A stretch of DNA of 64,000 nt. Source: a virus. The stretch lies in the IMG/VR virus record IMGVR_UViG_3300037755_000512, one strand, 5' to 3'. The position numbers and the translations under genes were made by a program. Below the pieces are notes generated by a model. The model did not search any database, was not told the DNA's origin, and saw nothing but the letters and a program-made list of their open reading frames with translations. This document shows positions 5,096 to 64,000 of the stretch, one piece after another; the stretch's first letter is position 1; each line of letters begins with the position of its first letter.

Positions 5096-5267
5096 TTTAG
5101 TTTACTTGGTTAAATTATGGGTGTCAACAATATCATGGGCTCTGTTTTCGTTTAAGTCAAAAATAAGCACAACTTGTGTCAATGTCAATAGTTGTCATAG
5201 AATATATTTTACGACACCCCCTTGTTTTAATTATAAGTATTACGTAAATTAGCATACTACACATTTA

Positions 5268-7648: not shown

Positions 7649-7667
7649 ACATAAACTAAAATTCCAA

Positions 7668-26500: not shown

Positions 26501-27024
26501 CCATAAAATAGCTTCTCGAATGTAGGCGGAAGGGTAGGCCCTCTATGAATAACTAAAATCTCCTCTTCCTTGACAGGCGGAGTTACGGCATGTCTTGTTC
26601 TGTGAATGCAACGTGGTTTGTTAAAATTGTCTGTCAGGAATATAAGGTCACCAGCGATTCCTCCTCCGTTAATTCTATGCTCCTTCAATGGGCTGAAGTT
26701 CAATCCAGACCATGTTATTACATTTGTAACTACATCTTTATTTAACTCAAGGACACAATTCTTGTCGGGGTCCGTGTTATAGAAACAAAGAAAATGTACA
26801 TCGTCAGTTACAGACCTGATACCCCCTATAAACTTGGAGTTTGTGTCAAGAAAAGATCCTGTATTAACAACAGTAGTCCCACGAACATTCTCAATAGCGC
26901 CTCTTTGGGAGGCCTGAGAACGACCGGAAATAAAGTTGGCCGCGAACTGATAGTCATCAGGAGATAAAATCTCAACCGAATCGTCGGTATTGAGACCACC
27001 AGTAAACGTTCTGATTTGTTCCAT
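23575..27024 (-). CDS. tail fibre/tailspike-like protein (1149 aa)
   Basis: Large beta-rich ORF with poly-Thr linker and a GVSPSPVGETGTV module shared with the 265-aa protein at 27764-28561. Confidence 0.6.
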   Translation of the reverse strand: MEQIRTFTGGLNTDDSVEILSPDDYQFAANFISGRSQASQRGAIENVRGTTVVNTGSFLDTNSKFIGGIRSVTDDVHFLCFYNTDPDKNCVLELNKDVVTNVITWSGLNFSPLKEHRINGGGIAGDLIFLTDNFNKPRCIHRTRHAVTPPVKEEEILVIHRGPTLPPTFEKLFYGDELGSYTESSTTTTTLSVTTTIDPSLPQRGNIVINGNVYTYNSFSSNTFAGVSPSPVGETGTVKVHEYILANLINDFSFQYAYHYEYYDNQISVLSPYSSLCTRSVIQEDYKKVRVTIPADEEIPVKVKEIVISARVNNTGSFFEIGRLKRSAGVFDVLYFDFYNNTNGNLLDPFLSQPYSLVPRRAGSMSLSKSRLWMGNILEGYDTPEDVDLEYGIEVAESATPSTYSVYTLVKKTYEALGNGPPWKWILISTETVVWDTSFQYIIKRDGVIDVVEYTPTWGTGDAPLSRHSGFTNIPQSDYTSQTPPPSPHAGGEQYYTYTYVLTQADVLVNFNPLLSDLEGTKTFPSDSSYKLGILYSDSEGQKCGVLTKESLQIDTPDRKVNSIKINWSLSTHDNIPSWADTFSIVLTKNLKKSWFVENYSIDVHYYRVKSDSSEDIYHGDGSNLYKNYPYVRVNIKNFPLNGLSYSFVEGDRILLKQVGTSTKYDLDLVIKSFDGEYLLCERGDMEVPLTELAYNEIEIYRPITTGGADVVFYEIGHTYKIIQTSTTPLFSVTSGVIEGDTVITGREVYVQNTEVEKTDTSAAFKTISLDNNSIWNTDIGRPFIQTPVGEVLKSAYFRHSATFIAGTKINGLSDFDSGDEGNIPVESGTIQRLQSTNKEATEGDVLLAVSNSDTYSIYIDEARLTTGTSSFLIGATKVVGDVRKQKSGFGTLHPESVHEEDGYVYFFDKLSRSFCRYATNGIFPISEYKAVTHFEDQAALNSEDDEVVTGYDPFYKILFVTFTNAATNTRKTIGWSLVKERWISFFDFAPEGYVVGSNSMYSIKGGVLYKHNDTVNNNRFYGVDFDSMVELSFNDGPDFVKEWLSLGVGCSPNLYAFNGVDQKVITNGLKTDVYNRHNQTTDILWDEFEVNENMVYGEIRGDKNTGGVLDGDTMYSNTAQCRITMLSGINKYLLYAKVGFEVSRGHEL

Positions 27025-43332: not shown

Positions 43333-45358
43333 TCTTTTTTAGTTTATATCTTCTTTGAAACTTGTTGGGGTTAATTCTTCCCCTGCTTTGTAGTGTTTGA
43401 TGACGGCGCTTAATTCTTTTGGCCGCAATCAAAGCGTACCCCGACGCCATGCCTAGGTCAAACTTTTCAGTGTCATCAAGCTTAAAATCCTTCCAATCTC
43501 TCAATAGTTCTGGATGGTTTACCCTGTGGCAATGCTCGTCTATAAATAATTCCGTATGCTCTACAATTGATTGGTGAGACTTGGTTGACGCAGAAATGCC
43601 CTCGTTTCCTTTTTCATCAACCATGATAAACGCCGCATAACCCCTGTCATGGAAATACGCTCTGATCCCCTGCTTCTGATCTTCAAACAGCATCTGACAT
43701 CCGAAATAATGGCAGAGCTTAATCATGTCCTCGTAAAATATCGCCGCAGTTTGTGGTCGGTTTGCGTAGATAGCCACAAAGTTATCTGAGTCACCCTGAT
43801 CGAACGGATCAAACTTTCTGTATACCGCCGCAGCCCCTTTAGAAAATCTCCCTGTCTTAGTCCTGTTGTGATCGTATGGGTCAATTCCAATTACGAAATG
43901 AAGTATGTTCTTTGGGATCACATTAGTTCCTCGGATATGTACATTGTTTGCCTTATCCGGATCCTCGAATATCCAGCTAAACTGGAATCTTCCCTTCGAT
44001 GTTTTTACCAGCTTTACTTTTGTTTTTTCTTCATCCTCCCATAACAGATCGTATCTGGTTTCGTAATCTTTCTTCCAATTCAACAAGTCAAGACGGTCAT
44101 CTATTTTGATCGCGTTGTATAAACAGTTGTCGCCATCAGTTCTGAAGGCTTCCTGCCATGTAGTCGGGTTTTTGCGGATGAAAGAAGCGAGTGCCCTCGG
44201 ATCATCTATAAGATCCAGTCTCCTCTTCATTAAGTGTTCCAGTCCTCTCTTGCTATCAGGAATCCCGTACTTATCAAGGTAGATCATATCCTGAGCCGGA
44301 GTAAAGAATCTGTACAGTCCAGATTTAGTCCTGCTGTCAGACTGTCTCTTGCTTTGATCTGAGTCTTTCCATAATTGCTCGTAAGACTCAAGGTATCCTT
44401 CCATATCTTCTACGGTGGAAGTATAAATAGCCTTACCTAAAATTGTCCATCCATCTGAGTCTTCGAAACACGGCTTAACCTGATAGTGCCTCTTCAAAAC
44501 GTCAAGATCTATTGTCTTGAACACCTCGTCACACATGTATCTGGTTAGTTTCTCTCCGTCATAAGCCTCAGGTTTTGAGTTTCTATAATTGATCAACGAC
44601 TCTAATTCTGAATCGACATCGTACTGGTTTGAATCTAACTCTCCCCTCTTAGAAGATTTATAGAATCTTAATTCCCTCTTCGGCACATCGCCCTGAGACC
44701 TGTCGTATTGTGGTTTGAAAAAGTCTGGCAGTTTTCTGAAGGGCTGAACACACGCCTTTCCAAACACACTCTTTGCGTCCGCCTCGACCTTTGACTGGAT
44801 GCCGGACCACGAGTTAGGAACCCTTGTGGCATGTTCAGTAATGAAGCATCCTGCCCAAAAAGTTTTTCCAATCCGACGTTTAGTTATCTCAATTAGCCCA
44901 TAAGCATCAGGATCATTAACCACATAATCAGTTATGTAGGCTTTTTTTAAGTCTGGAAGACGAAACTTCGGCAGCCCAATATCTATCCGCCAGTGCGTGA
45001 GGTAGTAATAGTACAACCCTGTCAAATAAGTCATCTTTCCATTGTTCAGGAACCAAGCCCCGAACTTGCGACGATGCCATTCTCTGGCTCTGTACTTTTG
45101 AAGATCAGTGTCAACGTAGTTGGCATCAAGTCTCTTCATCTCCTTCTCCCTTGACATTCTACGGGAGTAATCCTTTGACGGGGTGGGTGGCTCCCAGAAT
45201 TGCTCGGTCTTAATTGTAGACCGAACTATTACATCGGTGTCGTCAAGCCTTCCTGTTTCATAATTCCACACCTTTCCTTCTGGTGGTAAATACACCCTTA
45301 TAGCAAGGTCTCCCTCGCCAACAACCATCGATGACCCTCCTTTAATTTTATTGTACAT
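43280..45358 (-). CDS. terL: terminase large subunit
   Basis: 692-aa ORF; ATPase-like ...ITKRRIGKTFWAG... and a nuclease-domain-like VIGIDPYDH acidic motif; first gene of the structural operon. Confidence 0.55.
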   Translation of the reverse strand: MYNKIKGGSSMVVGEGDLAIRVYLPPEGKVWNYETGRLDDTDVIVRSTIKTEQFWEPPTPSKDYSRRMSREKEMKRLDANYVDTDLQKYRAREWHRRKFGAWFLNNGKMTYLTGLYYYYLTHWRIDIGLPKFRLPDLKKAYITDYVVNDPDAYGLIEITKRRIGKTFWAGCFITEHATRVPNSWSGIQSKVEADAKSVFGKACVQPFRKLPDFFKPQYDRSQGDVPKRELRFYKSSKRGELDSNQYDVDSELESLINYRNSKPEAYDGEKLTRYMCDEVFKTIDLDVLKRHYQVKPCFEDSDGWTILGKAIYTSTVEDMEGYLESYEQLWKDSDQSKRQSDSRTKSGLYRFFTPAQDMIYLDKYGIPDSKRGLEHLMKRRLDLIDDPRALASFIRKNPTTWQEAFRTDGDNCLYNAIKIDDRLDLLNWKKDYETRYDLLWEDEEKTKVKLVKTSKGRFQFSWIFEDPDKANNVHIRGTNVIPKNILHFVIGIDPYDHNRTKTGRFSKGAAAVYRKFDPFDQGDSDNFVAIYANRPQTAAIFYEDMIKLCHYFGCQMLFEDQKQGIRAYFHDRGYAAFIMVDEKGNEGISASTKSHQSIVEHTELFIDEHCHRVNHPELLRDWKDFKLDDTEKFDLGMASGYALIAAKRIKRRHQTLQSRGRINPNKFQRRYKLKKNGKLHLSKSLRQPKRKG

Positions 45359-46146: not shown

Positions 46147-46395
46147 CTAAACTCTGTTCTGGCCCTCGACATTTCTGGCAACCCTGTCAAGGGTTCTTTT
46201 GTTGAGCCACATTAGGGCCTCCTCAAGTTTTGTTATGGCTAAAGAATTTTCACGACAAGAAAATTTTTTATTCAGGTAATTCAGTCTGTCTATCAATATA
46301 GCAATAAATGCCAAAGAGCAATACCAATGAGCTTCTTTGATAAGCATTACGGAAAGGCTGTCTTTAATCCAGACTAAAGACAGGATCAACATCAA
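46147..46395 (-). CDS. hypothetical protein
   Basis: 82-aa ORF. Confidence 0.3.
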   Translation of the reverse strand: MMLILSLVWIKDSLSVMLIKEAHWYCSLAFIAILIDRLNYLNKKFSCRENSLAITKLEEALMWLNKRTLDRVARNVEGQNRV

Positions 46396-47271: not shown

Positions 47272-47702
47272 TTACCGGTGTTTCGAGAGGACTGATGAAA
47301 TAATAAATCACCTCTGTTTCGGTACCTTCTGTTCATGGTGTCATGCACTATCCAATAACCATCTATCTCAGGGTCATTAGCAGTAATTAGCACCGTGTCC
47401 CCATAGACAAATGTTTTGCTACGAATGATATCTTGAGACAAAGCCATCCACCTGATTTCACCAGACTTAAGCCTTGCTAGGTTTATCCTTGCTCCAGAAG
47501 CAGTTATCAACGGCGCGTCATCTGTTTGACTCGGGACAGGGTTGTATACAGTCAGCACGTCCAGCACAATCCTCTCCGGTGTGGCCTCCCTAGAAGAAAA
47601 GCTGATCATTATGAATAGAAATAGCAATATTCTCATGAGCTTGGTTTTAAGTGAAACTTTCTTCATCTTCTTACAAAATCTTTTCTCTCTTTCTATTGTC
47701 AT
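47217..47702 (-). CDS. secreted 3D-domain (MltA-like) peptidoglycan hydrolase
   Basis: N-terminal signal/TM (MKKVSLKTKLMRILLFLFIMISF), then DDAPLITASGARI...GDTVLITANDPEIDGYWIVHDTMNRRYRNRGDLLF with the three conserved Asp of the 3D domain. Confidence 0.5.
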   Translation of the reverse strand: MTIEREKRFCKKMKKVSLKTKLMRILLFLFIMISFSSREATPERIVLDVLTVYNPVPSQTDDAPLITASGARINLARLKSGEIRWMALSQDIIRSKTFVYGDTVLITANDPEIDGYWIVHDTMNRRYRNRGDLLFHQSSRNTGKWMNVTIKKISRTWKRNQ

Positions 47703-48646
47703 ACTAACTCCTTAAGATCTTTGATTCGTTTATACCCAACATCATATCTTTGGTTATGAGCAGCATCCATCAGGTATGTACACACACCACCTTTGTTTAA
47801 TTCGACAAACGTCTCAAACCTGTCGTCAACAAAAATTTCTATTCCGGATGACTTGGCGATATCAAGCTTTGAGTTATTGTGGCCTACGGTATACACGGGC
47901 GCTTTTGGAAAACCATAAATATCCAACCACTCCATAGTTACCTCACTCGGAACGGTTCGGCTGGTTATGTAGCAATGCGGTTCGAAAGGGAGTCCGAGAG
48001 GGTTGACTTTGACCGGAATACTCATCCAAAAATAAATATCATTGGCAACCTCAGAGAACCTCTTGGATAAAAGAGGATCGTTCCAGTAAACAGGACGTGT
48101 TTTGATTTCTGGAAACCTGAGCATCATAGCGCCAATAAAGTCGGCAAGCACTTCATCGACATCCAGTCCGATCTTGCGGCGTTGCAGATATAAATGATTT
48201 CGGTTGTCAAACTCAGGATGGGTTTTTTCAAACTCCATTAACGCCAGCAGACCCCATCCAGCATTTGCCAAGTGTTTTGTTTTTAAGTCAGGATCAAGAT
48301 CTTCTCCGTTTTTCCATGCGGTAATATGGCGCTCAACACTCTCCATGCACTCAAGCCACCCCTGACCCTTGCGCCAGTTGTCTGCGCCAGACTCAATGAC
48401 GGTCAGCCTTTTTTTTGCGACATCATTGATCGGTATATCCTTACCCAGCACTCTGTTTCCTTCCTCGTCCCCGTACACAGTATATTTATGTGCCCCCTCA
48501 GTATAAACATCAACTATTGACTTGATCGGAGACGTTGGAACTAAACCATACCTTGGTTTTCCTGCGTTGTATCTTTTTGCCTGTTCTGCCATAATATTTA
48601 TTCCAAGACTGACATTACCGTATTGAGAACTTTTGGGTCTAACCAT
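47699..48646 (-). CDS. fusion protein: N-terminal nucleotide pyrophosphohydrolase-like region + C-terminal HAD-superfamily 5'-deoxynucleotidase
   Basis: HAD motif I IGLDVDEVLADF (DxDxV) and motif IV FVDDR in the C-terminal half; N-terminal ~130 aa helical (MazG-like?) region. Confidence 0.5.
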   Translation of the reverse strand: MVRPKSSQYGNVSLGINIMAEQAKRYNAGKPRYGLVPTSPIKSIVDVYTEGAHKYTVYGDEEGNRVLGKDIPINDVAKKRLTVIESGADNWRKGQGWLECMESVERHITAWKNGEDLDPDLKTKHLANAGWGLLALMEFEKTHPEFDNRNHLYLQRRKIGLDVDEVLADFIGAMMLRFPEIKTRPVYWNDPLLSKRFSEVANDIYFWMSIPVKVNPLGLPFEPHCYITSRTVPSEVTMEWLDIYGFPKAPVYTVGHNNSKLDIAKSSGIEIFVDDRFETFVELNKGGVCTYLMDAAHNQRYDVGYKRIKDLKELV

Positions 48647-48894: not shown

Positions 48895-49277
48895 AAATCG
48901 GTTGTTACAGTCATTACATCATTAAAATCTAAGTAGGCGTAGATTGCTTTTTCAACCCTCTTGAGCCTATTGTGTTGAGGGGCATCAAAGACGTCTATGA
49001 ATATTTTTCCCTTCAGTTTTTCTTCCGCCAACGATCTGAGGTCCTTTGTTTTTGCAGCGTACTGCAATCCGTTAAGAGTAAAAGCAACCATTCTGACGTC
49101 GGAGTACAACCATCCCAATTCTCCATTTTGGTCTTTCACCTCCACCTCAAACACTAGCCGTCCAGTTAAATCGCCCAGCCAATAAGCCTCAAAACTCACC
49201 CTAGCTTTTATAGGGATGCTCTGATCGGCCTTGGCCACCAAGTCAAGGCAGTGCATAAATGAATCTTTAAGAAACAT
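48891..49277 (-). CDS. hypothetical protein (target of the leader-proximal CRISPR spacer)
   Basis: 128-aa ORF; protospacer at 48968-48997. Confidence 0.45.
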   Translation of the reverse strand: MFLKDSFMHCLDLVAKADQSIPIKARVSFEAYWLGDLTGRLVFEVEVKDQNGELGWLYSDVRMVAFTLNGLQYAAKTKDLRSLAEEKLKGKIFIDVFDAPQHNRLKRVEKAIYAYLDFNDVMTVTTDL

Positions 49278-49831
49278 TAGTAGTCGAGTGAGTCTTCTGT
49301 TTCGCCAGTCAGTTGCATGTATGGGAAAAAGCGGTCAATTACGACCTGAGCATCTTCGGTAGAGTTAGCCCAAATACCCTTGCCTTCCGACTCTTCGATT
49401 TTTCCATTTTTGTCGAGATATGATATCGTTGTCTTATAGCACTTTGACTCCTTTTTATCAGAGATCATGTCCATAATCGCCGAGAATGCTTTTTCATAAG
49501 AATCGTATTCAACTGAATTCCCCTCCGTGTTCTCCACAGCAACCTTGTTATTGTATGTGGCGAATACATTTATTCCACTGATTCTAGCGAGAGCCTTAAT
49601 AAAGTCGTTCTCGATAGAGTTGTGGGTCACCTTGTCTGTTAAGAAATTCCCAGCAATTAATTCGCTATAAAATTTGGGCGCTCGCTCTCGGAGATACTCC
49701 AAGAATTTTCTTTTCCGGTCAATACCGGACGCTAGTTTTAGTATTGGATTCATGATTGTTTTGGTTCGTGCATTAATATGTCTTCCTGAGTCATGCAGAA
49801 ATATTTCTTGCCCATAATTTCGTTCTCCCAA
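49277..49831 (-). CDS. hypothetical protein
   Basis: 184-aa ORF. Confidence 0.45.
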   Translation of the reverse strand: MGERNYGQEIFLHDSGRHINARTKTIMNPILKLASGIDRKRKFLEYLRERAPKFYSELIAGNFLTDKVTHNSIENDFIKALARISGINVFATYNNKVAVENTEGNSVEYDSYEKAFSAIMDMISDKKESKCYKTTISYLDKNGKIEESEGKGIWANSTEDAQVVIDRFFPYMQLTGETEDSLDY

Positions 49832-50397
49832 TCCGCATCTCTCGGGTATGCGATTACATCTCCAATTTTTACCGAAAGGGTTGGCGATCCTTTTAGCGGT
49901 GTTCCTATGTGGGAGAGGGTTGCAAATTTTGCATCATGTGGAACGTTGATAGCTGTTATTATCCCCGATGGTGATTTAATTACATTTATACCATCGTCAT
50001 TAACCACCCCTTCAGCCTGAATCGCCTCGCACAGAACTCGGCCTCCGATCATAACTATCTCTCCATTCCTTATGGCGGCAAATATGTACTCGTATGGCAC
50101 GAGATACAATCGCTCCCCGTTGTGCTCAATAGCCATTGTGTCGTCGATCGCCGAATAGTGTAAAACTACGTCGTCGTCCACCTGTACCTCGGGTACGATG
50201 TACTTATAAGGTATGCCGTTACTCATTCCACGTGGAACATTTACGACATGCCCCATAGTCTGGGCGTACTTACTCACGTCCTCAAGCCCCTCCGTGCCTG
50301 CCACCTTCAGCTCGAGTGAACCGTAGTGAATCATGTCTACTTTCTCTGATTCAACGGTGACAAGCACATGGTTGAGAATGGGCTGCGGGTAAGTCAT
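49750..50397 (-). CDS. hypothetical protein (215 aa)
   Basis: ORF; possible duplicated beta-barrel segments. Confidence 0.4.
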   Translation of the reverse strand: MTYPQPILNHVLVTVESEKVDMIHYGSLELKVAGTEGLEDVSKYAQTMGHVVNVPRGMSNGIPYKYIVPEVQVDDDVVLHYSAIDDTMAIEHNGERLYLVPYEYIFAAIRNGEIVMIGGRVLCEAIQAEGVVNDDGINVIKSPSGIITAINVPHDAKFATLSHIGTPLKGSPTLSVKIGDVIAYPRDADWENEIMGKKYFCMTQEDILMHEPKQS

Positions 50398-51180: not shown

Positions 51181-51257
51181 CGCGGAGCGATCCACAAAGA
51201 GAGAGGTTACCCGCCTTGGAAGCGGGGTTATTGCAAGTTCGAGTCTTGCCTTCGCGA
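51181..51257 (+). tRNA. tRNA-Pro (anticodon TGG), irregular D-arm
   Basis: Hand-folded: acceptor cgcggag/cttcgcg, anticodon arm cccgc-cttggaa-gcggg, T-arm gcaag-ttcgagt-cttgc; D-arm lacks the usual GG and pairs poorly. Confidence 0.4.
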
Positions 51258-51327
51258 CGGAACGTATTTCTGGCTCGAGTCCAGACGAAGGTCGGTCAGG
51301 GATTTCTGTAGTGTAATCGGCAACACG

Positions 51328-51412
51328 CGTTCATATCCTGATCCGCCAGAGCTGGGACTGTCTGTAAAACAGTTGCCTTCTGGCTGAGTGGGTTCGAATC
51401 CCACGTGATGGA
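51328..51412 (+). tRNA. tRNA-Tyr-like (anticodon GTA), long variable arm; 5' end uncertain
   Basis: Anticodon arm actgt-ctgtaaa-acagt at 51357-51373, T-arm gtggg-ttcgaat-cccac at 51386-51404; could not pair a clean acceptor stem. Confidence 0.3.
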
Positions 51413-51419
51413 CTAATAT

Positions 51420-51492
51420 TTCTGGTTAGTATAACGGCAAGTACGCCTGACTTTGACTCAGGTATCTGTCAGTTCGACTCCGACCTTTCACC
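51420..51492 (+). tRNA. tRNA-Gln-like (anticodon TTG), acceptor stem apparently unpaired (possible pseudo-tRNA)
   Basis: D-arm gtat-aacggcaa-gtac, anticodon arm cctga-ctttgac-tcagg, T-arm gtcag-ttcgact-ccgac; the 5'/3' ends do not form a 7-bp stem. Confidence 0.3.
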
Positions 51493-51555
51493 CTTAATGG
51501 AAAATATTATTTACAATAAACGGCTGTTTTTGTAAAGAATATTTGACAACACTAT

Positions 51556-51600
51556 CCTCCTGTAGTTTAACTGGTCGGGGTTCGAATCCCCGCAGGAGGC
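51556..51600 (+). other. 45-nt tRNA-like minihelix (acceptor stem + consensus T-arm only)
   Basis: cctcctg ... cgggg-ttcgaat-ccccg caggagg c: perfect 7-bp acceptor-like stem plus canonical GGTTCGAATCC T-loop, with no D or anticodon arm. Confidence 0.3.
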
Positions 51601-51621
51601 CTGAGAGGATTGCAAAAAAGA

Positions 51622-51710
51622 GCCCCAGTGATGGAATTGGCGAGACATGTCAGATTTAGACTCTGATGCGAAATAACAGTAGCGTGTAGGTTCGGGTCCT
51701 ACTTGGGGTA
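51622..51710 (+). tRNA. tRNA-Leu (anticodon TAG), type II
   Basis: Acceptor gccccag/ttggggt (2 G-U), D-stem atg/cat, anticodon arm tcaga-tttagac-tctga, long variable arm, T-arm gtagg-ttcgggt-cctac. Confidence 0.55.
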
Positions 51711-51715
51711 CTTAT

Positions 51716-51805
51716 AGGCTCATGGTGAAAACGGTAAACACGTCAGGCTTAAACCCTGATGCGAACTAAAAAATAAGCTTGCCGGTTCGAGTCCGGCTGG
51801 GCCTA
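51716..51805 (+). tRNA. tRNA-Leu (anticodon TAA), type II
   Basis: Acceptor aggctca/tgggcct, D-stem gtg/cac with GG loop, anticodon arm tcagg-cttaaac-cctga, long variable arm, T-arm gccgg-ttcgagt-ccggc. Confidence 0.55.
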
Positions 51806-51941
51806 CTATATGGAGAGTAAACCTGCTAGGGTAGGGGCGCTCTGCTAAGGCGCACGTGCGGTAATACGCATGTGGATCATGACCACTGCTCTCCGCGTTC
51901 ATTACAGTAAACGAACGTTTACTAATTTTGTTTAATGTTAC

Positions 51942-52024
51942 GGAGGTCGTCCGAATGAACGAGGACACTATTTTGAAAACAGCTGGGCTTAACGGCTTTG
52001 GGGGTTCGATTCCCTTGGCCTCCG
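51942..52024 (+). tRNA. tRNA-like gene, identity unresolved
   Basis: Acceptor ggaggtc/ggcctcc and T-loop ttcgatt present; anticodon arm could not be resolved by hand. Confidence 0.3.
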
Positions 52025-52159
52025 CTGACCAAGGGATATATTAAAGATGTTAAGAGAAGGGATGGAGCTCTACCCCCCACCCTTCCATTCATTGTATGCT
52101 TTTAAATATATAACCGCAAAAACACTAAAAAATATATGCTTTTACGTCGGTCTCCCCAG

Positions 52160-52226
52160 AGTTCATGGTGAGATTCGAACTCACGCTTCGAGTTTTGCAG
52201 ACCCGATTTTGCACCGAGCCATGAAC
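52160..52226 (-). tRNA. tRNA-Cys-like (anticodon GCA) with a shortened D region
   Basis: Minus strand: acceptor gttcatg/catgaac, anticodon arm cgggt-ctgcaaa-actcg, T-arm gtgag-ttcgaat-ctcac; only ~14 nt where a D-arm should be. Confidence 0.25.
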
Positions 52227-52354
52227 TTAAAAAAACCCCACAAGGTGCGCTTGGATCAGAGGCGTATGGGGTGTGTTGGGCGACAGGAGAGGGTTGAAGC
52301 AAAAGACTCGTTCTTGGGGCGCTGTTCTTATGGGTGAGCGTGGCGAGTACTTCG

Positions 52355-52426
52355 TGCAAAGGGCTGGAGTCGAACCAACGGCCACCGGCTTTTCAGACCG
52401 GCACTCTACCACTGAGTTACCGATGC
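52355..52426 (-). tRNA. tRNA-Phe (anticodon GAA); acceptor stem has 2 central mismatches
   Basis: Minus strand: gcatcgg-ta-actcagtggtagagt..., anticodon arm ccggt-ctgaaaa-gccgg, T-arm gttgg-ttcgact-ccagc, 3' acceptor cctttgc. Confidence 0.45.
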
Positions 52427-52435
52427 AATTTAGTA

Positions 52436-52522
52436 GCGGAGGTGGGAATCGAACCCAGTAGAAGTGCTTATGAGACACCCAAGCTCACCAGAGCTGCCTA
52501 CAACCGCAATTTTGTAGTGATG
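52436..52522 (-). tRNA. tRNA-Met/Ile-like (anticodon CAT); acceptor pairing not found
   Basis: Minus strand: D-stem aggc/gctt, anticodon arm ggtgt-ctcataa-gcact, T-loop ttcgatt; possible pseudo-tRNA. Confidence 0.25.
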
Positions 52523-52595
52523 ATAGGTTACGATCCTACTCTCTCGAACGTATCAGATTCGCGCTTTCCCGATTAAGCTACATCACTATTTTTAG

Positions 52596-52670
52596 TTCCG
52601 CCGGTGGGAATCGAACTCACTTTTTGTCTGGTTAAAAGCCAGAAGCAATACCAAATTTTGCTACGACGGA
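52596..52670 (-). tRNA. tRNA-Lys (anticodon TTT)
   Basis: Minus strand: acceptor tccgtcg/cggcgga, anticodon stem ctgg/ccag with loop cttttaa, T-arm gtgag-ttcgatt-cccac. Confidence 0.5.
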
Positions 52671-52851
52671 GTAAACCTTGTCGTAGTCCTTTTTATTTGT
52701 TTTCATATTAGCTTTTGTTTGCTGTTACTATTTTTAACCTTTAATGTAACAATCTTGTTAGTTACAACTTTGTTAGTTGGCCCTGCGGGTACCGATCCCA
52801 CGCCCTGTTCATTATGAGTGAACTGCTCCTCCATTAAGCTAAGGGCCGATG

Positions 52852-52923
52852 AACTCCTGTCGGGATTCGAACCCGAACTGATGAGGTAGAAACACATAGT
52901 TCTTCCGATTAAACTACAGGAGT
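52852..52923 (-). tRNA. tRNA-Arg-like (anticodon TCT)
   Basis: Minus strand: perfect acceptor actcctg/caggagt, D-stem agtt/aact, anticodon loop tttctac, T-arm tcggg-ttcgaat-cccga. Confidence 0.4.
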
Positions 52924-52957
52924 TTATTAGAATAATCTATGTCTTCTTCTTTCCATG

Positions 52958-53030
52958 AGGTCCCTCAGAGAATCGAACTCTGTATCTTCTGGTTACAAAT
53001 CAGTGGCATCGCCAGCAATGCTTAGGAACC
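52958..53030 (-). tRNA. tRNA-like gene, anticodon unresolved
   Basis: Minus strand: acceptor ggttcct/agggacc, D-stem gcat/atgc, T-arm cagag-ttcgatt-ctctg; anticodon arm irregular (ctg-atttgtaac-cag). Confidence 0.3.
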
Positions 53031-53055
53031 TTTTTATTTCGCATTTCGCGAATTG

Positions 53056-53127
53056 CACGGGTGGTAGGACTCGAACCTACAGTCACGGTTTTGGAGACCG
53101 TTGGTTTACCGATTAACCGACACCGGT
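53056..53127 (-). tRNA. tRNA-Trp (anticodon CCA)
   Basis: Minus strand: D-stem ggtt/aacc, anticodon arm acggt-ctccaaa-accgt, T-arm gtagg-ttcgagt-cctac; one C-C mismatch in the acceptor stem. Confidence 0.5.
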
Positions 53128-53161
53128 GTTTTGAGAGGTTGTAAATGCAATCCTCTCGGTG

Positions 53162-53233
53162 AGGGAAGGGAATGATTCGAACATTCGTAAGGCACATTAA
53201 CAGTGTGCTGCCTGACCACTAGGCTACCAACCC
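53162..53233 (-). tRNA. tRNA-Asn (anticodon GTT); acceptor has 2 U-U mismatches
   Basis: Minus strand: gggttgg-ta-gcct-agtggtc-aggc, anticodon arm gcaca-ctgttaa-tgtgc, T-arm gaatg-ttcgaat-cattc. Confidence 0.45.
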
Positions 53234-53242
53234 TTTTTATTG

Positions 53243-53315
53243 CAGTACTGACGGGAGTCGAACCCGCTCCGTTCTTCGTGACAGGAAGACATCTTATCCA
53301 TTTGACCTCAGCACT
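53243..53315 (-). tRNA. tRNA-Asp (anticodon GTC)
   Basis: Minus strand: acceptor agtgctg/cagtact, anticodon arm tcttc-ctgtcac-gaaga, T-arm gcggg-ttcgact-cccgt. Confidence 0.5.
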
Positions 53316-53425
53316 GTGATAGTCCGACAGGGTCGAGCGGTTGACCTGACGCTTTTGATCCGCAACTCCCAGTTGAATGTACGCTTTACTGGGCACGTCA
53401 TTTCGACCCTGTCGGAACTTTGTTG

Positions 53426-53500
53426 TGGAACCATAGGGGATCGAACCCTACTCGCGGATCTTGCAAGGATCTGCCGCCAAGCCGAGGAACATGTGGCCCC
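53426..53500 (-). tRNA. tRNA-Ala (anticodon TGC)
   Basis: Minus strand: acceptor ggggcca/tggttcc (2 G-U), anticodon loop cttgcaa, T-arm taggg-ttcgatc-cccta. Confidence 0.45.
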
Positions 53501-53673
53501 AAATTAAAAAGCTCCAGATTTTACTTTGGAGCTTTTTTGTCGACATCTATTCACCTTACTAAATGAGTTGCTCCAATGGAATACCTCCCTTGCCCCAATT
53601 AATTGTGGCGCCGTTCATTCTCGCGATATTAAAGCAACTCATTTTCATTTCATGTAGTTTTATACCAAAAATA

Positions 53674-53720
53674 TATACATCATATCTGTCAGGGGACTTG
53701 TGAAGTCCCCTGACAGATAT
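53674..53720. promoter_or_regulatory. perfect 19-bp inverted repeat with 9-bp loop (bidirectional terminator or recombination/regulatory site)
   Basis: catcatatctgtcagggga-cttgtgaag-tcccctgacagatatgatg. Confidence 0.6.
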
Positions 53721-53807
53721 GATGTCATTGCCTTTTGATAGCTTTCAAACTCATCGTTAGAAGCGTAATTCAATTGGATAGAGCGTCGTTGGTGGTAACA
53801 CGGTTAG

Positions 53808-53882
53808 TACTGCTGACGAGACTCGAACTCGCTAGTACACGCCTTGAAAGGGCGCGGCCTCGACCACTTCGGCTTCAGCAGC
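53808..53882 (-). tRNA. tRNA-Glu (anticodon TTC)
   Basis: Minus strand: acceptor gctgctg/cagcagt, anticodon arm gcgcc-ctttcaa-ggcgt, T-arm gcgag-ttcgagt-ctcgt. Confidence 0.45.
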
Positions 53883-59040: not shown

Positions 59041-59418
59041 TTGCAGAAAATGCAAGTAATTAAAGATATACTTAGATCTATCACCTGTGATGTCATGGGG
59101 ACGACTGTACAAATAAACGTACACGTCGACAAGACATACGGTTCCAGATTATACCTACAAGCAAGCTACGTGGCGCCATGCACGAAAACTGGGGGATCTG
59201 AGCCGTGGTTTGGCCGGAAATGGTACCTGTCGTCACACATGACCAGAGACGAAGTGGTAAAGACCGCATTCGCTGCATTTAAGGCAGCTGTTGAGCATGA
59301 GGTCATGGAGGGATTTAAGTTCAACGGGAAGATTGTGTTTAATCCGCATGTGTCTTTTGAGGCCCTGCTAAGCATAACGGATCAGGAAGTTTCGCGTCAC
59401 ATAGTTGAAAAAAGATGA
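59041..59418 (+). CDS. hypothetical protein
   Basis: 125-aa ORF. Confidence 0.4.
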   Translation: MQKMQVIKDILRSITCDVMGTTVQINVHVDKTYGSRLYLQASYVAPCTKTGGSEPWFGRKWYLSSHMTRDEVVKTAFAAFKAAVEHEVMEGFKFNGKIVFNPHVSFEALLSITDQEVSRHIVEKR

Positions 59419-60035
59419 TTGATAACATAGACATAATAAAGCCATTATTGAGTTTCGATGATGAGGGTGATTTTTACATGCTATATATATTTGTACGCAA
59501 GAAAGATCAGACCACGGACAAGGCGAATCACCAGTCAGTGAGGACAATCAAATCGTACTGCATTGACTCGACTGAACATTTGGAGAAACGGTACGATGAG
59601 ATAAAAAAGTTGGCAGAAATGTTTCGTGCAAGGGTGTATATCCATATTCAAAAACAAAACCACAAGGACGTGGCGATGGATATGATTGTTGCGATTGCCG
59701 ATAGAATTAAGTCGGGCCAAATTAATCAGAAATATGTTTTTGATTCTGTCGTTGGAAGCGTTAAGGCGAGGGAGAAAAGATGGATTGTTGATGTTGATGT
59801 CGATAAGTTTAATGGATCGAACGCAGAGATGGCATTTTATATAAACGTGCATTGTATGCCGTTTTATCAAAGAAAAATAATCTCTGTTGTTCCAACGCCA
59901 AATGGAGTTCATTTAATAACTAAGGGGTTTGATGTAGCAAAATTCAAAGAGAGGTACCCATACATCGAGATACATAAGAAAAATCCGACGCTGTTGTATT
60001 ATCCGGAGAGCTTGAACGAGTCTGGAGAGGGTTGA
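59415..60035 (+). CDS. hypothetical protein (carries the degenerate target of the oldest CRISPR spacer)
   Basis: 206-aa ORF; imperfect protospacer at 59438-59468. Confidence 0.45.
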   Translation: MIDNIDIIKPLLSFDDEGDFYMLYIFVRKKDQTTDKANHQSVRTIKSYCIDSTEHLEKRYDEIKKLAEMFRARVYIHIQKQNHKDVAMDMIVAIADRIKSGQINQKYVFDSVVGSVKAREKRWIVDVDVDKFNGSNAEMAFYINVHCMPFYQRKIISVVPTPNGVHLITKGFDVAKFKERYPYIEIHKKNPTLLYYPESLNESGEG

Positions 60036-60600: not shown

Positions 60601-60990
60601 ATGGATTTATCCAACAAACCGGCATTCATAAACAAACAAGAAGCACTTGAGCGCCTTACAGCCTTAGAGGCAGAAGCGAAGAAATTAAGAACCGTCATAG
60701 GAAGCGAACCAAAAAAATCAAAAGAAGAGCGATTTTGGGAGCTAATTCTTCGGACGGATTCGGTTAAAATGTGTAAGGAAACATATCCCAATTCAATTTT
60801 TGGGTTCAGGGGTGAGGATTTTTTGTGGGAGTACGATTCAGAAAATCGCCATCTATGGTTAAGTTATAGGCTTATTTGGTCGGTTCTTGAAGATGAATAC
60901 TCACTGCAACACCATGATATTCAGGCATATATAAAGACGGAGGTAGAACAGCGTTTCAAAACACAGGCTGTGACACCTAGACGTCTTTGA
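60601..60990 (+). CDS. hypothetical protein; the 3' end of the ORF runs into the first CRISPR repeat
   Basis: 129-aa ORF; last ~16 codons are translated repeat/spacer sequence (VEQRFKTQAVTP), so the real stop may be earlier or the gene may be disrupted by the array. Confidence 0.3.
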   Translation: MDLSNKPAFINKQEALERLTALEAEAKKLRTVIGSEPKKSKEERFWELILRTDSVKMCKETYPNSIFGFRGEDFLWEYDSENRHLWLSYRLIWSVLEDEYSLQHHDIQAYIKTEVEQRFKTQAVTPRRL

Positions 60991-61689
60991 TGCCCCTCAA
61001 CACAATAGGTAGAACAGCGTTTCAAAACACAGGCTGTGACACCCACACATCCTCGGGATGATCGATCAGTACTGGTAGAACAGCGTTTCAAAACACAGGC
61101 TGTGACACCCCAGCTTTCTATACACCAGCACACCGGTCTGGTAGAACAGCGTTTCAAAACACAGGCTGTGACACCATACTTAGGGGTTTTGGTGTGTCTT
61201 GGTCTGGTAGAACAGCGTTTCAAAACACAGGCTGTGACACCTACTTTTGAAGATCAGTGTCAACGTAGTTGGGTAGAACAGCGTTTCAAAACACAGGCTG
61301 TGACACCGGACCCCGACAAGAATTGTGTCCTTGAGTTGGTAGAACAGCGTTTCAAAACACAGGCTGTGACACCCACGCGCGGTCGAGTACGGTCATGCTA
61401 TAGGGTAGAACAGCGTTTCAAAACACAGGGTGTGACACCAGATTCCTTTCATGCAGGGCACAGCCAACAGGTAGAACAGCATTTCAAAACACAGGGTGTG
61501 ACACCTTTCAGCCGACCCATGAAACGAGACACGTATGGTAGAACAGCATTTCAAAACACAGGGTGTGACACCAAAGCCGTTATTGAGTTTCAATGATGAG
61601 GAGGTAGAACAGCTTTTCGGAGTAAAAATATCCACTAATGTCAAGTTTAAGGTATATAAAACTGGCAGAACAACACTTCAAAACGAAGA
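60942..61689 (+). CRISPR. CRISPR array: 10 intact 36-bp repeats (GGTAGAACAGCGTTTCAAAACACAGGCTGTGACACC), 30-31-bp spacers, plus 2 degenerate terminal repeats
   Basis: Read directly: repeats at 60942, 61008, 61074, 61140, 61206, 61272, 61338, 61404, 61470, 61537; repeats 8-10 carry point mutations and two further decayed copies start at ~61603 and ~61654, so the leader is at the low-coordinate end; no cas gene or anti-repeat seen in the window. Confidence 0.9.
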
Positions 61690-62275
61690 GGGGACGCCTG
61701 ATAGGTGTATCACGGACAAGGCGAGCAGGGTTGTTTCGATAAAAAGGTTAAGGTGATGTATTATGGGGCCAATTACAGGCACAGAGAACGACCACAGTTT
61801 TTAGGCGCAGGGGAAGCTGTGTTTTTGGAGATCTACCGCCACAGAGCCCCTGTTAAAGCCCTGCATGTCGTAATTCTTACGCGAGAATCTTAAGTGTTAA
61901 TTTTACCCAGGATTTGGGCTCCTACAAAAGTGGCGACCTATATACCTGACGGGGACGAAACGAAAAGGAAAAACGCGAATTTCGAGGGGGGTGGGGGTTC
62001 ATTTCTGGCAAAAAAAATAGGAAAATAGGGGAAATGAGAACGAAATTAAGGTATTGGATGGCAAGGCGAAATGACCGCACCGGTCTACCTTGGAAGGTTG
62101 ACCTAATAATGTAAACAGTTGATTATCAGTAGTATTGAGAGAAAAAACACGTTGTCTGACCTATAAACCAGACAACAAATACACATTGGGAATATGCAGC
62201 CATTCGGTTGCATATCCGCGTGTCCATATACCTAACAACCGCAACGCTATAATCCATCCCGATAGCCAGCACTGA

Positions 62276-62323
62276 AGTCAGCCTATAACCTGACAAACTA
62301 CGACCAAAAGTCAGCCTATAACC
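62276..62323. repeat. two direct copies of an 18-bp site with palindromic arms (GTCAGCCTATAACCTGAC), plus a variant at 62155
   Basis: agtcagcctataacctgaca ... agtcagcctataacctgacg; variant gtctgacctataaaccagac at 62155-62174 next to a CCAGACAAC iteron. Confidence 0.5.
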
Positions 62324-62420
62324 TGACGAAATCATCATAACTCGAACAAGCTTTTTCTAGCAACCAGAAAAATAATCTCATTGACTGTGATAAATTATTG
62401 GCAAACTAAACAACAAGACG

Positions 62421-62981
62421 ATGAAAACACCACATCCATCCGGCCAAGCATACAAAAAAATCATCCCATCCGACCGCAAGCATTACGAAAAACGGGCCAA
62501 AGTTTTCGCCGACAAGGCCAAAAGACGTATACACAAGCACCATAGAAAGACCTCGCAGGTATACCGAAACTGGAATATCCAAAAGGTTGGTATTGCGTAC
62601 TCCTATTATACGCTCGACGTGGCGATGGAACATACCCGCAAGGGATTCCAGCAACAGTATGGACAAAAACTTAGACCTGCCTCTATGAGGTTTCTTTGTT
62701 GCGTACATTCATATTGCGCATACACCAACCAAAGTACATTCACCTATACAGACCTGTATGACTGGATTGCAAAGCACGAACATGCACCACGGCTATTAAT
62801 ATTCACACCACGAGAGGTTTCTACCCGTATAGGGGAACTACTGAAGCTTCATTTTCTCAACCCTCTCCCGTACCATGCCTTCACTCCCACGCATCGCATG
62901 AACCTGATCATGAAAATGATGGAGAGTAACCATCGCATGATACTCGACAAGCATTTTCCAATAGACCAACCAGAAAAATAA
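62421..62981 (+). CDS. basic hypothetical protein (186 aa) flanked by ~30-50-bp direct repeats
   Basis: Lys/Arg/His-rich N-terminus; the 3'-terminal sequence caaccagaaaaataatctca[c/t]tgactgtga also occurs 30-60 bp upstream of its start (62361-62392 vs 62968-62999). Confidence 0.45.
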   Translation: MKTPHPSGQAYKKIIPSDRKHYEKRAKVFADKAKRRIHKHHRKTSQVYRNWNIQKVGIAYSYYTLDVAMEHTRKGFQQQYGQKLRPASMRFLCCVHSYCAYTNQSTFTYTDLYDWIAKHEHAPRLLIFTPREVSTRIGELLKLHFLNPLPYHAFTPTHRMNLIMKMMESNHRMILDKHFPIDQPEK

Positions 62982-63447
62982 TCTCACTGACTGTGAGCAA
63001 GTTACGCTCATCGCGTAAAAATTATTTGCGTATTGTTTTGGTGCTTTGAGTAAAACCTACGATCATTGCATATCGAATTGACGCAACAACGCGGGGGCCA
63101 GATGGGCCCACAATTCGCTCCCTCCTTTGAAGTGCTTAACTTCCCATGGTGTTACACGGATATTAACAGGTACACTAAGGACTCATAATAGTTTGCGGTC
63201 ATCGTTGTGAAACGTAGCGAGCAGGAGGCCTTCATAAGGTTTTTAAAAAGCACTTTGACCCGACAAACTGATGAGCGGGACATATTATACCCAAAACGCA
63301 AACTTACGAGGGGTGGTACCCTTTCTGGTAGATGTTCTAACCAGATTAAGTAAGGGAGATGCAGGGCCAAAGATCAATGCTAAAAGCATCGAAACATCCC
63401 ACTAGAAATAGTGGGTGGGTTTTTGTCAAACTAAAACATCAAAAACC

Positions 63448-64000
63448 ATGAAAACAATTTATTTGTATGACGGCCATTCGAACAAAGTTTCGTTTCAGTA
63501 CAATGATATTTCTGAGCTAAAATCAGAGCTAGAAAAAAGAAATATCACCATCGGAAACAGGGTCACCATCGGAGACGGGGCCACCATCGGAGACTGGGCC
63601 ACCATCGGATACGGGGCCACCATCGGATACAGGGCCACCATCGGATACGGGGCCAACATCGGAGACAGGGCTAGAATCGGAGACGGGGCCAGCATCGGAT
63701 ACAGGGCCACCATCGGAAACGAGGCCACCATCGGAGACAGGGCCACCATCGGAAACAGGGCCGGCATCGGAAACGAGGCCACCATCGGAGACGGGGCCAC
63801 CATCGGATACAGGGCCACCATCGGATACAGGGCCACCATCGGATACGGGGCCACCATCGGAGACTGGGCTAGAATCGGATACAGGGCCAACATCGGATAC
63901 AGGGTCACCATCGGAAACGAGGCCACCATCGGAAACGAGGCCACCATCGGAAACAGGGTCAGCGTCGGGTTCGAGGCCACCATCGGGGACTGGGCCACCA
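63448..64000 (+). CDS. hexapeptide-repeat (left-handed beta-helix-like) protein, 3'-truncated by the window end
   Basis: ATG at 63448 preceded by a TTTTGTCAAAC box; after ~35 aa the frame encodes >25 tandem [TA]IG[DNY]xA hexapeptides from an 18-bp DNA tandem repeat (accatcggaNacNgggcc). Confidence 0.45.
   Translation, partial: MKTIYLYDGHSNKVSFQYNDISELKSELEKRNITIGNRVTIGDGATIGDWATIGYGATIGYRATIGYGANIGDRARIGDGASIGYRATIGNEATIGDRATIGNRAGIGNEATIGDGATIGYRATIGYRATIGYGATIGDWARIGYRANIGYRVTIGNEATIGNEATIGNRVSVGFEATIGDWAT
63552..64000 (+). repeat. 18-bp tandem DNA repeat array (>=25 copies) underlying the hexapeptide-repeat ORF
   Basis: accatcggagacggggcc / accatcggatacagggcc ... continuing to the window edge. 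Confidence 0.8.

Follow-up and report, generated by a model that had tools for sequence, protein, structure and literature searches.

The 64,000-nucleotide stretch of viral DNA analysed here (IMG/VR record IMGVR_UViG_3300037755_000512; the window) contains a CRISPR-type array that is physically part of a phage gene. The repeat is formed by the last 36 coding nucleotides of that gene, and seven of the ten spacers are perfect matches to the phage's own genome, with an eighth matching at 27 of 30 positions. The phage genome is roughly 67 kb, no cas gene was found in it, and the same gene-plus-array arrangement recurs in many other uncultured phages. No description of such an array was found in the literature.

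Array organization and protospacers

The array (60942–61618, plus strand) consists of ten full 36-nt repeats (R1–R10), ten unrelated spacers (S1–S10; 30 nt each, except S9, which is 31 nt), and a terminal truncated repeat. The repeat, GGTAGAACAGCGTTTCAAAACACAGGCTGTGACACC, starts at positions 60942, 61008, 61074, 61140, 61206, 61272, 61338, 61404, 61470 and 61537. Copies 1–7 are identical, copy 8 has one SNP and copies 9–10 have two SNPs. The eleventh copy (61603–61618) retains only its first 16 nt with one mismatch, and a decayed remnant of a further repeat (GCAGAACAACACTTCAAAACGAAG...) is located at the trailer end (about 61665–61700, plus strand).

The earlier note had described this array and reported seven perfect spacer matches, as well as an eighth imperfect match, within the same genome; this observation was confirmed, with all seven perfect matches found at the coordinates and strands that it gave. 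The protospacer of S1 (48968–48997, minus strand, 30/30) is located in a gene for a 128-aa hypothetical protein, with a 3′ flank of ggcTCAAg. The protospacer of S3 (41907–41936, plus strand, 30/30; gtgTAAAc) is antisense to the portal gene, that of S4 (6551–6580, plus strand, 30/30; gaaTCAAt) is in the YqaJ/RecE-like exonuclease gene, and that of S5 (45093–45122, plus strand, 30/30; gcaTCAAg) is antisense to the large terminase gene. S6 matches a 1149-aa structural gene (26744–26773, minus strand, 30/30; aaaTAAAg) in the same reading frame as the array, S8 matches a gene for a 1955-aa protein (16126–16155, minus strand, 30/30; tgaTCAAg), and S9 is antisense to the primase-helicase gene (11352–11382, minus strand, 31/31; aagTCAAt). 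The oldest spacer, S10, matches a 206-aa gene with three mismatches (59438–59467, plus strand, 27/30), and the adjacent motif is degraded (tgaTTTTt). S2 and S7 match nothing at up to six mismatches, either in the window or in the approximately 3 kb of the genome that lies outside it, and have no match in IMG/VR or GenBank phages. Chance cannot produce seven exact 30-mers. The gene identities given in the earlier note hold for the portal, large terminase, YqaJ/RecE-like exonuclease and primase-helicase. The peptide YLGVLVCLGL, however, which it had listed as shared between the array ORF and a real protein, is shared with an alternative-frame ORF (6402–6653) and not with the YqaJ protein; only S6 and S10 are in the frame of their source genes.

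Seven of the eight protospacers carry the 3′ motif NNNT[C/A]AA and all eight have T at position +4. The background frequency of the motif is 1.25% per site, and none of 5000 random sets reached the observed information. The protospacers are spread across the genome and divided equally between the two strands (4:4), with five sense and three antisense to genes, which fits sampling of DNA rather than targeting of RNA.

The repeat SNPs form a series from R1–R7 (CGT..GCT) through R8 (CGT..GGT) to R9–R10 (CAT..GGT). Since R9–R10 encode the family consensus residues H and G, the oldest units are on the right and units were added one at a time at the gene-proximal end. Polar growth is also supported by two sister arrays of the family (loci L044 and L077), which share trailer units and differ at the 5′ end.

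The array in the phage genome

The earlier note had offered three explanations, namely a host array beside or inside a resident prophage, a truly phage-borne array, or an assembly chimera joined through spacer/protospacer identity. This interpretation was partly supported, in that the second option is correct while the other two were rejected, and the origin of the repeat in a phage gene was not recognized. The left junction, spacer order and right flank are identical in seven contigs from separate JGI and ENA assembly records, including a k141 (MEGAHIT-style) ENA contig, and a 30-nt identity cannot bridge k = 141. One further variant differs only by a clean 66-nt loss of the S4 unit. The junctions do not lie in spacers. 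Both flanks of the array are phage DNA, and one contig (L004) runs from the array through about 3 kb of further phage genes into the start of the window, giving a roughly 67-kb circular or terminally redundant genome with no host DNA. These assemblies are nearly clonal and share one fixed spacer set apart from the loss of the S4 unit; their independence is therefore limited and they do not show ongoing acquisition. An integrase-like gene is present (3314–4651) and self-targeting arrays do occur in lysogens. No convincing direct repeat that might represent att sites links the two ends of the window. A prophage-associated host array or a chimera is thus very unlikely.

No Cas family was found in any called gene or large ORF by precomputed Pfam assignments, PHROGs or PADLOC, and none of the 1955-, 1859- or 1149-aa ORFs matches a Cas9 family. 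No cas genes were found near the related arrays either; a 1266-aa ORF beside one of them (L117) has no Pfam, PADLOC or PDB match and cannot be called a Cas protein. The tracrRNA anti-repeat that the earlier note had proposed to look for was not detectable. A candidate at 61812–61843 looked convincing by eye, but its duplex energy (−22.8 kcal/mol) is within the window-wide chance range and its alignment score (19) is below the median of shuffled sequence (21). No anti-repeat was found near three related array loci (L101, L104 and L105), and there was no Rfam tracrRNA hit in the phage.

The repeat as the 3′ end of a conserved phage gene

Repeat 1 lies inside an ORF (60601–60990, plus strand), such that the array starts within a gene whose body takes the place of a leader. 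The gene encodes a 129-aa protein, whose last 12 conserved residues, VEQRFKTQAVTP, are encoded by repeat 1, and it stops at a TGA inside S1. The protein has 424 homologous clusters. The AlphaFold2 model is confident (pLDDT 94), with residues 115–126 predicted to form the end of a helix (104–119) plus a strand (125–128); no known fold or family matches. Alignments show that homologues without an array carry the same segment once, end in VEEHFKCKGVTP, and diverge in DNA in a codon-like way. Thus, the data indicate that the repeat is native phage coding sequence, rather than a captured host repeat. The exact repeat was not found elsewhere, with no hits in IMG/VR, in GTDB genomes (185,579 species genomes) or in the JGI metagenome set, and it matches no Rfam CRISPR-DR family at E ≤ 10. 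The protein family is almost absent from GTDB genomes (one hit, in a 3.8-kb MAG contig), and a protein search with the translated array found nothing.

The design is a family-wide trait. Of 150 representatives, 49 have an internal repeat, and in 48 of those the period is exactly 22 aa (36 + 30 nt). One scan identified 40 metagenome loci with arrays, of which 35 of the 36 with enough upstream sequence abut the N-domain ORF, and gene-plus-array modules are in places multiplied in tandem. Spacer lengths in these relatives are 29 nt (24 spacers), 30 nt (85), 31 nt (2), 32 nt (5), 33 nt (3) and 36 nt (1), so that 26% are not multiples of three. Terminal repeats are often truncated, being cut to the first 16–21 nt, and several spacers have perfect matches to kin phage contigs. 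Repeat sequences differ widely between family members. The distant relatives L044, L077, L074 and L095 carry 15–25 units as one long ORF, with repeats that diverge in a codon-like way, whereas in the window (TGA in S1, 31-nt S9) and in L105 the array contains stops and frameshifts. In the L044-type arrays, no self-match was found within the ±8 kb examined of these partly covered genomes, and the newest L077 spacer has no other exact match in IMG/VR. Spacers are enriched for being stop-free in the frame of the gene (88/107 against about 60%, P about 1e-6), and synonymous sites at repeat positions 1, 19 and 34 are conserved. Together with the 22-aa periodicity in about a third of the sampled relatives, these features indicate selection on the array.

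Origin of the array and related systems

The explanation that we favor, with moderate confidence, is that the array grew by one 66-nt unit at a time at the junction between the gene body and the first repeat, each step duplicating that repeat and inserting a 30 ± 1 nt fragment cut from the phage's own DNA next to the NNNT[C/A]AA motif. The most likely agent would be the type II adaptation machinery of the host (Cas1-Cas2, with Cas9 reading the PAM) acting in trans on replicating phage DNA, since the prespacer pool during infection would be dominated by the phage itself. The type II assignment is based on the 36-nt repeat, the 30-nt spacers, the PAM located 3′ of the protospacer with an N3 offset, the PAM end of each spacer facing away from the growing end, and the terminal repeat, which keeps the portion that a type II crRNA retains. 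In this view, the self-matching spacers are tolerated because the array does not currently direct interference against this phage, as the protospacers and PAMs are intact in all assemblies, apart from those of the oldest spacer. The spacers derive from this genome, but that they target it is unproven. Our analysis establishes that the array is real and phage-borne, that its spacers are self-derived and have a PAM, that growth was polar, that the repeat is embedded in a gene and that the design is family-wide; the identity of the acting enzyme as a host type II integrase and the absence of interference are inferences, as would be any function of the array for the phage. No host, host CRISPR-Cas locus or host repeat could be identified, and the acting integrase is therefore entirely inferred. 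The diversity of the repeats is also not readily explained by host integrases that would have to accept them all, and the signs of selection suggest that a tolerated by-product is probably an incomplete description. Acquisition in trans with the PAM of the donor system by arrays that lack cas1/cas2 (PMC8092290), and viral mini-arrays without cas genes (PMC6858448, PMC11656645), provide precedents.

Other explanations are less likely. The array may be a working weapon against kin, transcribed with its gene and processed with the host's tracrRNA and Cas9 to destroy superinfecting genomes of the same or closely related phages (superinfection exclusion or inter-phage competition), while the resident phage survives through copy number, timing, recombinational repair or DNA modification. 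This possibility, although doubtful, is consistent with viral mini-arrays that target relatives (PMC6858448, PMC11656645), the matches of other arrays of the family to phage contigs of their own group, the retained part of the terminal repeat, and synonymous-site conservation in repeat positions 1–19 and 32–36, which suggests an RNA- or DNA-level function. The RecE/YqaJ-type exonuclease and a dGTP_diPhyd_N-family protein encoded by the phage hint at repair or base modification. However, with seven perfect self-matches and intact PAMs a working array would be suicidal without a protection mechanism, of which there is no evidence; no tracrRNA or anti-repeat was found in the phage, the repeat was not found in any host array, and there are no escape mutations apart from the oldest spacer. 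A decoy is also possible but unlikely, in which the gene-end repeat mimics a host leader-repeat junction and/or crRNA handle, and either soaks up spacer integrations that would otherwise immunize the host (an adaptation sink) or yields repeat RNA that titrates Cas9 or tracrRNA into dead complexes, as an RNA anti-CRISPR does, the self spacers being harmless scars. A decoy would explain why the spacers come from the carrier and carry the host PAM yet do no harm, as well as the family-wide retention, the tandem modules and the constraint on the repeat ends, and repeat-mimicking RNA anti-CRISPRs are encoded by phages (PMC10651486). On the other hand, these copy host repeats closely whereas no host repeat resembling this one was found, a decoy has no obvious need to be translated although the spacers are enriched for being open in the gene frame, and the benefit of a sink would be an undemonstrated public good.

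Similarly unlikely is a protein-coding 22-aa tandem repeat unrelated to CRISPR machinery, with linkers filled by gene conversion, template switching, a phage enzyme or some other templated process. The repeat does encode an integral part of a protein with a confident predicted fold, the distant relatives have long in-frame arrays, stop-free spacers are enriched and no cas genes were found nearby. However, the 3′ motif is offset by 3 nt from the copied segment without microhomology to the repeat ends, the 29–33 nt length distribution breaks the frame in about a quarter of spacers, and the ORF is maintained through all units only in the distant L044-type subfamily. The repeats are identical or nearly so in DNA while the linkers are unrelated to each other and match distant genes, growth is polar and the terminal repeat is truncated, which are hallmarks of Cas1-Cas2 integration that no other known process produces. 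Two other CRISPR readings were rejected. A type VI-B (Cas13b) array was suggested by the 36/30 geometry and by a GGTGGAA...ACAAC-like repeat shape, the latter not being a test in itself, but the spacers show no bias towards targeting mRNA (3 of 8 could pair with transcripts), and type VI-B needs a full repeat 3′ of each spacer, whereas the terminal repeats here are truncated. A Cas12-type reading on the minus strand would place the motif 3 nt away from the protospacer and contradicts the polarity of growth.

The array shares with virus-borne mini-CRISPR arrays (Medvedeva et al. 2019, PMC6858448; reviewed in PMC11656645) its location on a virus without cas genes, a presumed dependence on host Cas proteins, and spacers that match virus genomes of the carrier's own group. 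The known mini-arrays have one or two spacers and repeats identical to those of the host, and target relatives rather than the carrier; the present array has ten spacers, seven of which match the carrier perfectly with intact PAMs, and a repeat that is the coding 3′ end of a conserved phage gene. Spacer acquisition in trans, as for the VI-B array of F. columnare using II-C machinery (PMC8092290) and type IV-A3 plasmid arrays (cited in PMC11656645), likewise yields spacers with the PAM of a co-resident system, with 36-nt repeats, 30-nt spacers and an A-rich, offset, downstream PAM (NNNNNTAAA there, NNNT[C/A]AA here). Here, the recipient is on a lytic-type phage genome instead of in the host, the spacer orientation is opposite, with the PAM end facing away from the growing end as in type II-A, and the leader is protein-coding. 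In neo-CRISPR loci formed by off-target Cas1-Cas2 integration (Nivala et al. 2018), an ordinary sequence reportedly becomes a repeat by duplication at each integration, as appears to be the case here; those events are reported as rare accidents at scattered chromosomal sites, whereas the same site in one gene family carries arrays in many phages, with signs of selection on the repeat ends and on translatability. RNA anti-CRISPRs and solitary repeat units in phages (Camara-Wilpert et al. 2023, PMC10651486) are also repeat-like elements without cas genes, and family members with a single repeat resemble solitary repeat units, but those elements are non-coding close copies of host repeats, whereas this repeat is coding, has no known host counterpart and is interleaved with real spacers. 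Canonical type II-A/II-C arrays share the repeat and spacer lengths, the 3′ PAM with an N offset, polar growth and a degenerate terminal repeat, but here no cas9, cas1, cas2 or tracrRNA was found on the replicon, there is no AT-rich non-coding leader and the repeat is translated as part of a protein.

Phage-borne arrays are normally described as small, non-coding copies of host arrays aimed at rival viruses. The present array differs in that its repeat is part of a conserved protein with a confident predicted fold, its matched spacers are samples of the carrier's own genome with a PAM, and the same module occurs in many uncultured phages. If our inference holds, host spacer-integration machinery writes into infecting phage genomes and leaves a natural record of in-trans adaptation, new CRISPR arrays can be born from coding sequence, and both CRISPR-finder hits in viral contigs and host predictions based on spacer matches can be misled by such self-matching arrays. 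A more speculative reading, which we consider only tentatively, is a translated CRISPR array, in which the gene body would serve as the leader and its last 12 codons as the repeat, while host adaptation machinery would be exploited to add 10-codon cassettes from the phage's own genome. The product would be selected both as DNA/RNA (repeat ends, half-repeat handle) and as protein (read-through translation), so that a virus would use Cas1-Cas2 to build or diversify a protein or to run a dual RNA/protein counter-defense; this possibility is raised by the enrichment of translatable spacers and by the long in-frame arrays, with up to 25 units, in some lineages.

An array of self-matching spacers carried by the phage

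The region 60942–61618 contains ten copies of the 36-nt repeat GGTAGAACAGCGTTTCAAAACACAGGCTGTGACACC at a 66-nt period, followed by an eleventh copy that keeps only its first 16 nt and by a decayed remnant at about 61665–61700. The spacers are 30 nt in length, except for S9, which is 31 nt. A mismatch-tolerant search of both strands reproduced every spacer match listed in the earlier note, whose observation is therefore confirmed. S1, S3, S4, S5, S6, S8 and S9 are exact, and S10 matches 59438–59467 at 27 of 30 positions. No match was found for S2 or S7, either in the window or in the approximately 3 kb of the genome outside it, nor for S2 in IMG/VR or for S7 among GenBank phages. The targets are the portal, the large terminase, a RecE/YqaJ-type exonuclease, the primase-helicase, two very large structural proteins, a hypothetical gene and a 206-aa protein. 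One detail of the note, the sharing of the peptide YLGVLVCLGL with a real protein, needs correction, since this peptide belongs to an alternative-frame ORF and not to the exonuclease; only S6 and S10 are read in the array in the same frame as their source gene.

The window is a tailed-phage genome, with genes for terminase, portal, an SU10-type capsid protein and primase-helicase, and 14 tRNAs. The terminase is 29% identical to those of Flavobacterium and Cellulophaga phages. Exact-protein look-ups found the flanking genes on contigs from several JGI samples, two ENA assemblies and Logan assemblies. Seven of these contigs cover the array, and all seven have the same left junction. Six have the same ten spacers, and those that extend past the array have the same right flank, whereas the seventh variant differs only by a clean 66-nt deletion of the S4 unit. 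All assemblies of this phage are near-clonal and may come from related samples, such that the agreement across separate assembly records is strong evidence for the junctions rather than for independence in time and place. A 30-nt identity cannot bridge a k = 141 assembly graph, and the junctions are not in spacers. One contig (L004) continues from the array through a 186-aa ORF, a DUF932 gene and other small genes into the first 3.4 kb of the window; the genome therefore closes at about 67 kb without any host DNA. No Cas family is detectable in any gene. The interpretation offered in the earlier note is thus partly supported: of its three alternatives, a truly phage-borne array is supported, while a host array beside or inside a prophage and a chimeric assembly joined through spacer/protospacer identity are both rejected.

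In spacer orientation, seven of eight protospacers are followed by NNNT[C/A]AA, and all eight have T at +4. This motif occurs at 1.25% of positions, and none of 5000 random sets of eight sites reaches the observed four-column information. There is no microhomology with the repeat ends. The protospacers are spread over the genome, four on each strand, with five sense and three antisense to genes, which fits DNA sampling and argues against selection for RNA targeting.

The repeat variants form a series, in which R10 and R9 encode VEQHFKTQGVTP, R8 encodes R..G at the two variable positions, and R7 to R1 encode R..A. H and G are the family consensus. The right end is therefore the oldest, and new units were added at the gene-proximal end by copying the first repeat. 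The 36/30 geometry, the 3' PAM with an N offset, the PAM end facing away from the growing end and the truncated terminal repeat are, by the established biology of type II systems, the signature of a type II array in the II-A orientation. A similar motif (NNNNNTAAA) and in-trans acquisition are described for the F. columnare II-C/VI-B case (PMC8092290). Comparisons of repeat shape with Cas13b or II-C repeats are not used as evidence here.

A repeat embedded in a phage gene family

ORF 60601–60990 (129 aa) runs into repeat 1, which encodes its last conserved residues VEQRFKTQAVTP, and stops in S1. Its closest homologues are small stand-alone proteins of 116–135 aa. At some of these loci (L098, L102), no second repeat copy follows and the next gene follows within about 200 nt; these proteins still end in ...VEEHFKCKGVTP, and the DNA of this segment diverges in a codon-like manner. 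An exhaustive profile-free search found 424 clusters of the family. An AlphaFold2 model (pLDDT 94) places the repeat-encoded residues at the end of the last helix and in a terminal strand, such that they are part of the predicted fold. Neither the fold nor the sequence matched anything characterised in the searches made. The repeat is therefore native phage coding sequence and not a captured host repeat. Consistent with this, the exact repeat is absent from 185,579 species genomes, from IMG/VR and from the JGI metagenome set, and it matches no Rfam CRISPR repeat family.

The gene-plus-array design is a family trait. Among 150 family representatives, 49 contain an internal repeat, and in 48 of these the distance is exactly 22 aa, i.e. 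12 conserved residues plus 10 unrelated ones. Many proteins end in a half repeat, VEEHFK.K followed by the stop. At the DNA level, three individual loci of the family (L101, L104 and L105) show a 36-nt repeat, spacers of 29–31 nt and a half repeat of 19 nt at the end, and both spacers of L105 carry stops. A metagenome scan for two VEEHFK-coding motifs 66 nt apart returned 40 loci. In 35 of the 36 with enough upstream sequence, the first repeat abuts the N-domain ORF in frame, and none is a free array or lies next to cas genes. Their 120 spacers are 29 nt (24), 30 nt (85), 31 nt (2), 32 nt (5), 33 nt (3) and 36 nt (1) in length, a ruler-type distribution that ignores the reading frame. About half of the arrays end in a truncated repeat, most often of 19–21 nt.

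Some contigs carry two or three gene-plus-array modules in tandem. In L125, L128, L141 and L146, and in proteins P0006, P0017, P0023, P0027 and P0085, whole modules of N-domain gene plus array are repeated, with arrays 324–352 nt apart, and in some phages they are fused into single ORFs of 280–860 aa containing 2–5 N domains, each followed by 1–3 repeat units. In the family locus L117, a 1266-aa ORF (1603–5403, +) lies directly downstream of an array and has an N-domain-like segment at its own C-terminus (5126–5377), but has no Pfam, PADLOC or PDB sequence match.

Several spacers of the family have perfect matches outside arrays. One from L114 hits L123, a contig with a sister array, and one from L152 hits a repeated intergenic element of L123. 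One from L132 and one from L105, two phage arrays from different samples, hit the same tail-protein gene (7628–8107) of phage contig L107 (IMGVR_UViG_3300009852_000051), where the two protospacers are about 100 nt apart and both are followed by CAAA. Self or kin derivation is therefore not peculiar to this window, and the rates of self-matching outside it are lower bounds, since the genomes of relatives were only partly covered.

A remote subfamily, found next to homologues of the neighbouring 206-aa gene, has an N domain that aligns with this family at an hhalign probability of 81% (E = 1.3e-5). It carries 15–25 units (VEDTIQNGVKHT plus 10 aa) as single ORFs of up to 633 aa, and its repeats diverge in a codon-like way. 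Its evolution is nevertheless CRISPR-like, with a shared trailer end, unique 5' units and block deletions. The 206-aa protein itself (59415–60035, +; PHROG 14949, unknown function) has 55–66% identical relatives in at least 80 IMG/VR contigs, including contigs of 130–300 kb. In otherwise unrelated phages (L044, L077, L074, L095), it sits next to, or within about 1.7 kb upstream of, a gene-plus-array module, as it does here, and it may be a functional partner of the array gene.

Signs of selection on the array and its possible roles

Across 107 spacers, 88 are stop-free in the gene's frame, compared to 56–65% in the other five frames and 61% for random 30-mers of the window (P about 1e-6). Read-through translation is therefore favoured, although not obligatory; in the window, S1 carries a TGA and S9 shifts the frame. 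In 29 non-redundant junctions, the synonymous sites at repeat positions 1, 19 and 34 are 97–100% invariant, while third-codon positions upstream are only 31–76% invariant. This points to DNA- or RNA-level constraint on the repeat ends and on the boundary of the half repeat.

The analysis establishes that the array is phage-borne, that its repeat is embedded in a gene, and that it grew by polar, unit-by-unit insertion of 30 (±1)-nt pieces of the phage's own DNA taken next to a PAM. The identity of the agent is inferred: it would be the type II adaptation complex of the host, acting in trans on replicating phage DNA, where the phage itself dominates the prespacer pool. It is likewise an inference that the array does not direct interference against its carrier. 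All seven perfect protospacers keep their PAMs in every assembly, and only the oldest spacer has diverged, with its target having lost the motif. Searches for a phage tracrRNA and for a host array with this repeat found neither.

The candidate functions are a tolerated by-product, exclusion of kin phages through host Cas9, a decoy for adaptation or for Cas9/tracrRNA, and a role for the translated repeat region. The signs of selection at both the protein and the nucleic acid level make a pure by-product unlikely as the whole story.

The nearest known systems are virus-borne mini-arrays (PMC6858448, PMC11656645), in-trans acquisition by arrays that lack cas1/cas2 (PMC8092290), RNA anti-CRISPRs (PMC10651486) and neo-CRISPR loci, which reportedly form by off-target integration. 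None of them combines a repeat that is an integral coding part of a conserved protein, a long array of spacers matching the carrier itself, and recurrence across a large phage gene family, and literature searches found no description of such a system. We regard it as a virus-borne CRISPR array that is distinguished by this combination. There is a real chance, although on balance it is unlikely, that it is something categorically new, namely a translated CRISPR array that a virus uses host adaptation machinery to build.

Additional features of the phage genome

An 18-nt tandem repeat (CACCATCGGATACAGGGC, more than 25 copies) occupies 63546–64000 and continues beyond the window. Its length and sequence differ between assemblies (contigs L004, L005 and L008), several contigs break there, and in L004 a DUF932 gene is called in this region. 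Two pairs of direct repeats, at 62275–62297 and 62308–62330 and at 62361–62390 and 62967–62996, lie in or next to the non-coding stretch downstream of the array, and the first pair (AAGTCAGCCTATAACCTGAC) contains an internal palindrome. The motif ACCAGACAACA appears as a perfect 14-nt tandem pair (3287–3314) immediately upstream of the integrase-like gene (3314–4651), twice at 1871–1894, and once about 0.5 kb downstream of the array (62165–62179); these may be recombinase or regulator binding sites. The motif (C)GTCTTTGTCAAA(C) recurs upstream of small genes, at about 140–160, 365–385, 1840–1860 and 2555–2575. It may be a phage promoter element and resembles the Bacteroidota-type TAnnTTTG element.

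The 14 tRNA genes (Pro, Leu x2, Phe, Met x2, Ile, Lys, Arg, Thr, Trp, Asn, Asp, Glu) form a cluster at 51181–53882, between the two divergent gene blocks. In precomputed Pfam results, one small gene (about 46147–46347, −) hits the Acb2/Tad1 hairpin family (sponges for anti-CBASS/Thoeris signals) and a 297–315-aa gene (47699–48646, −) hits PF18909 (dGTP diphosphohydrolase N-terminal domain), which could point to modified nucleotides in the DNA of this phage. Two Cpn10/GroES-like genes are also present, at 1390–1689 (+) and 49750–50397 (−), the second being only a faint hit.
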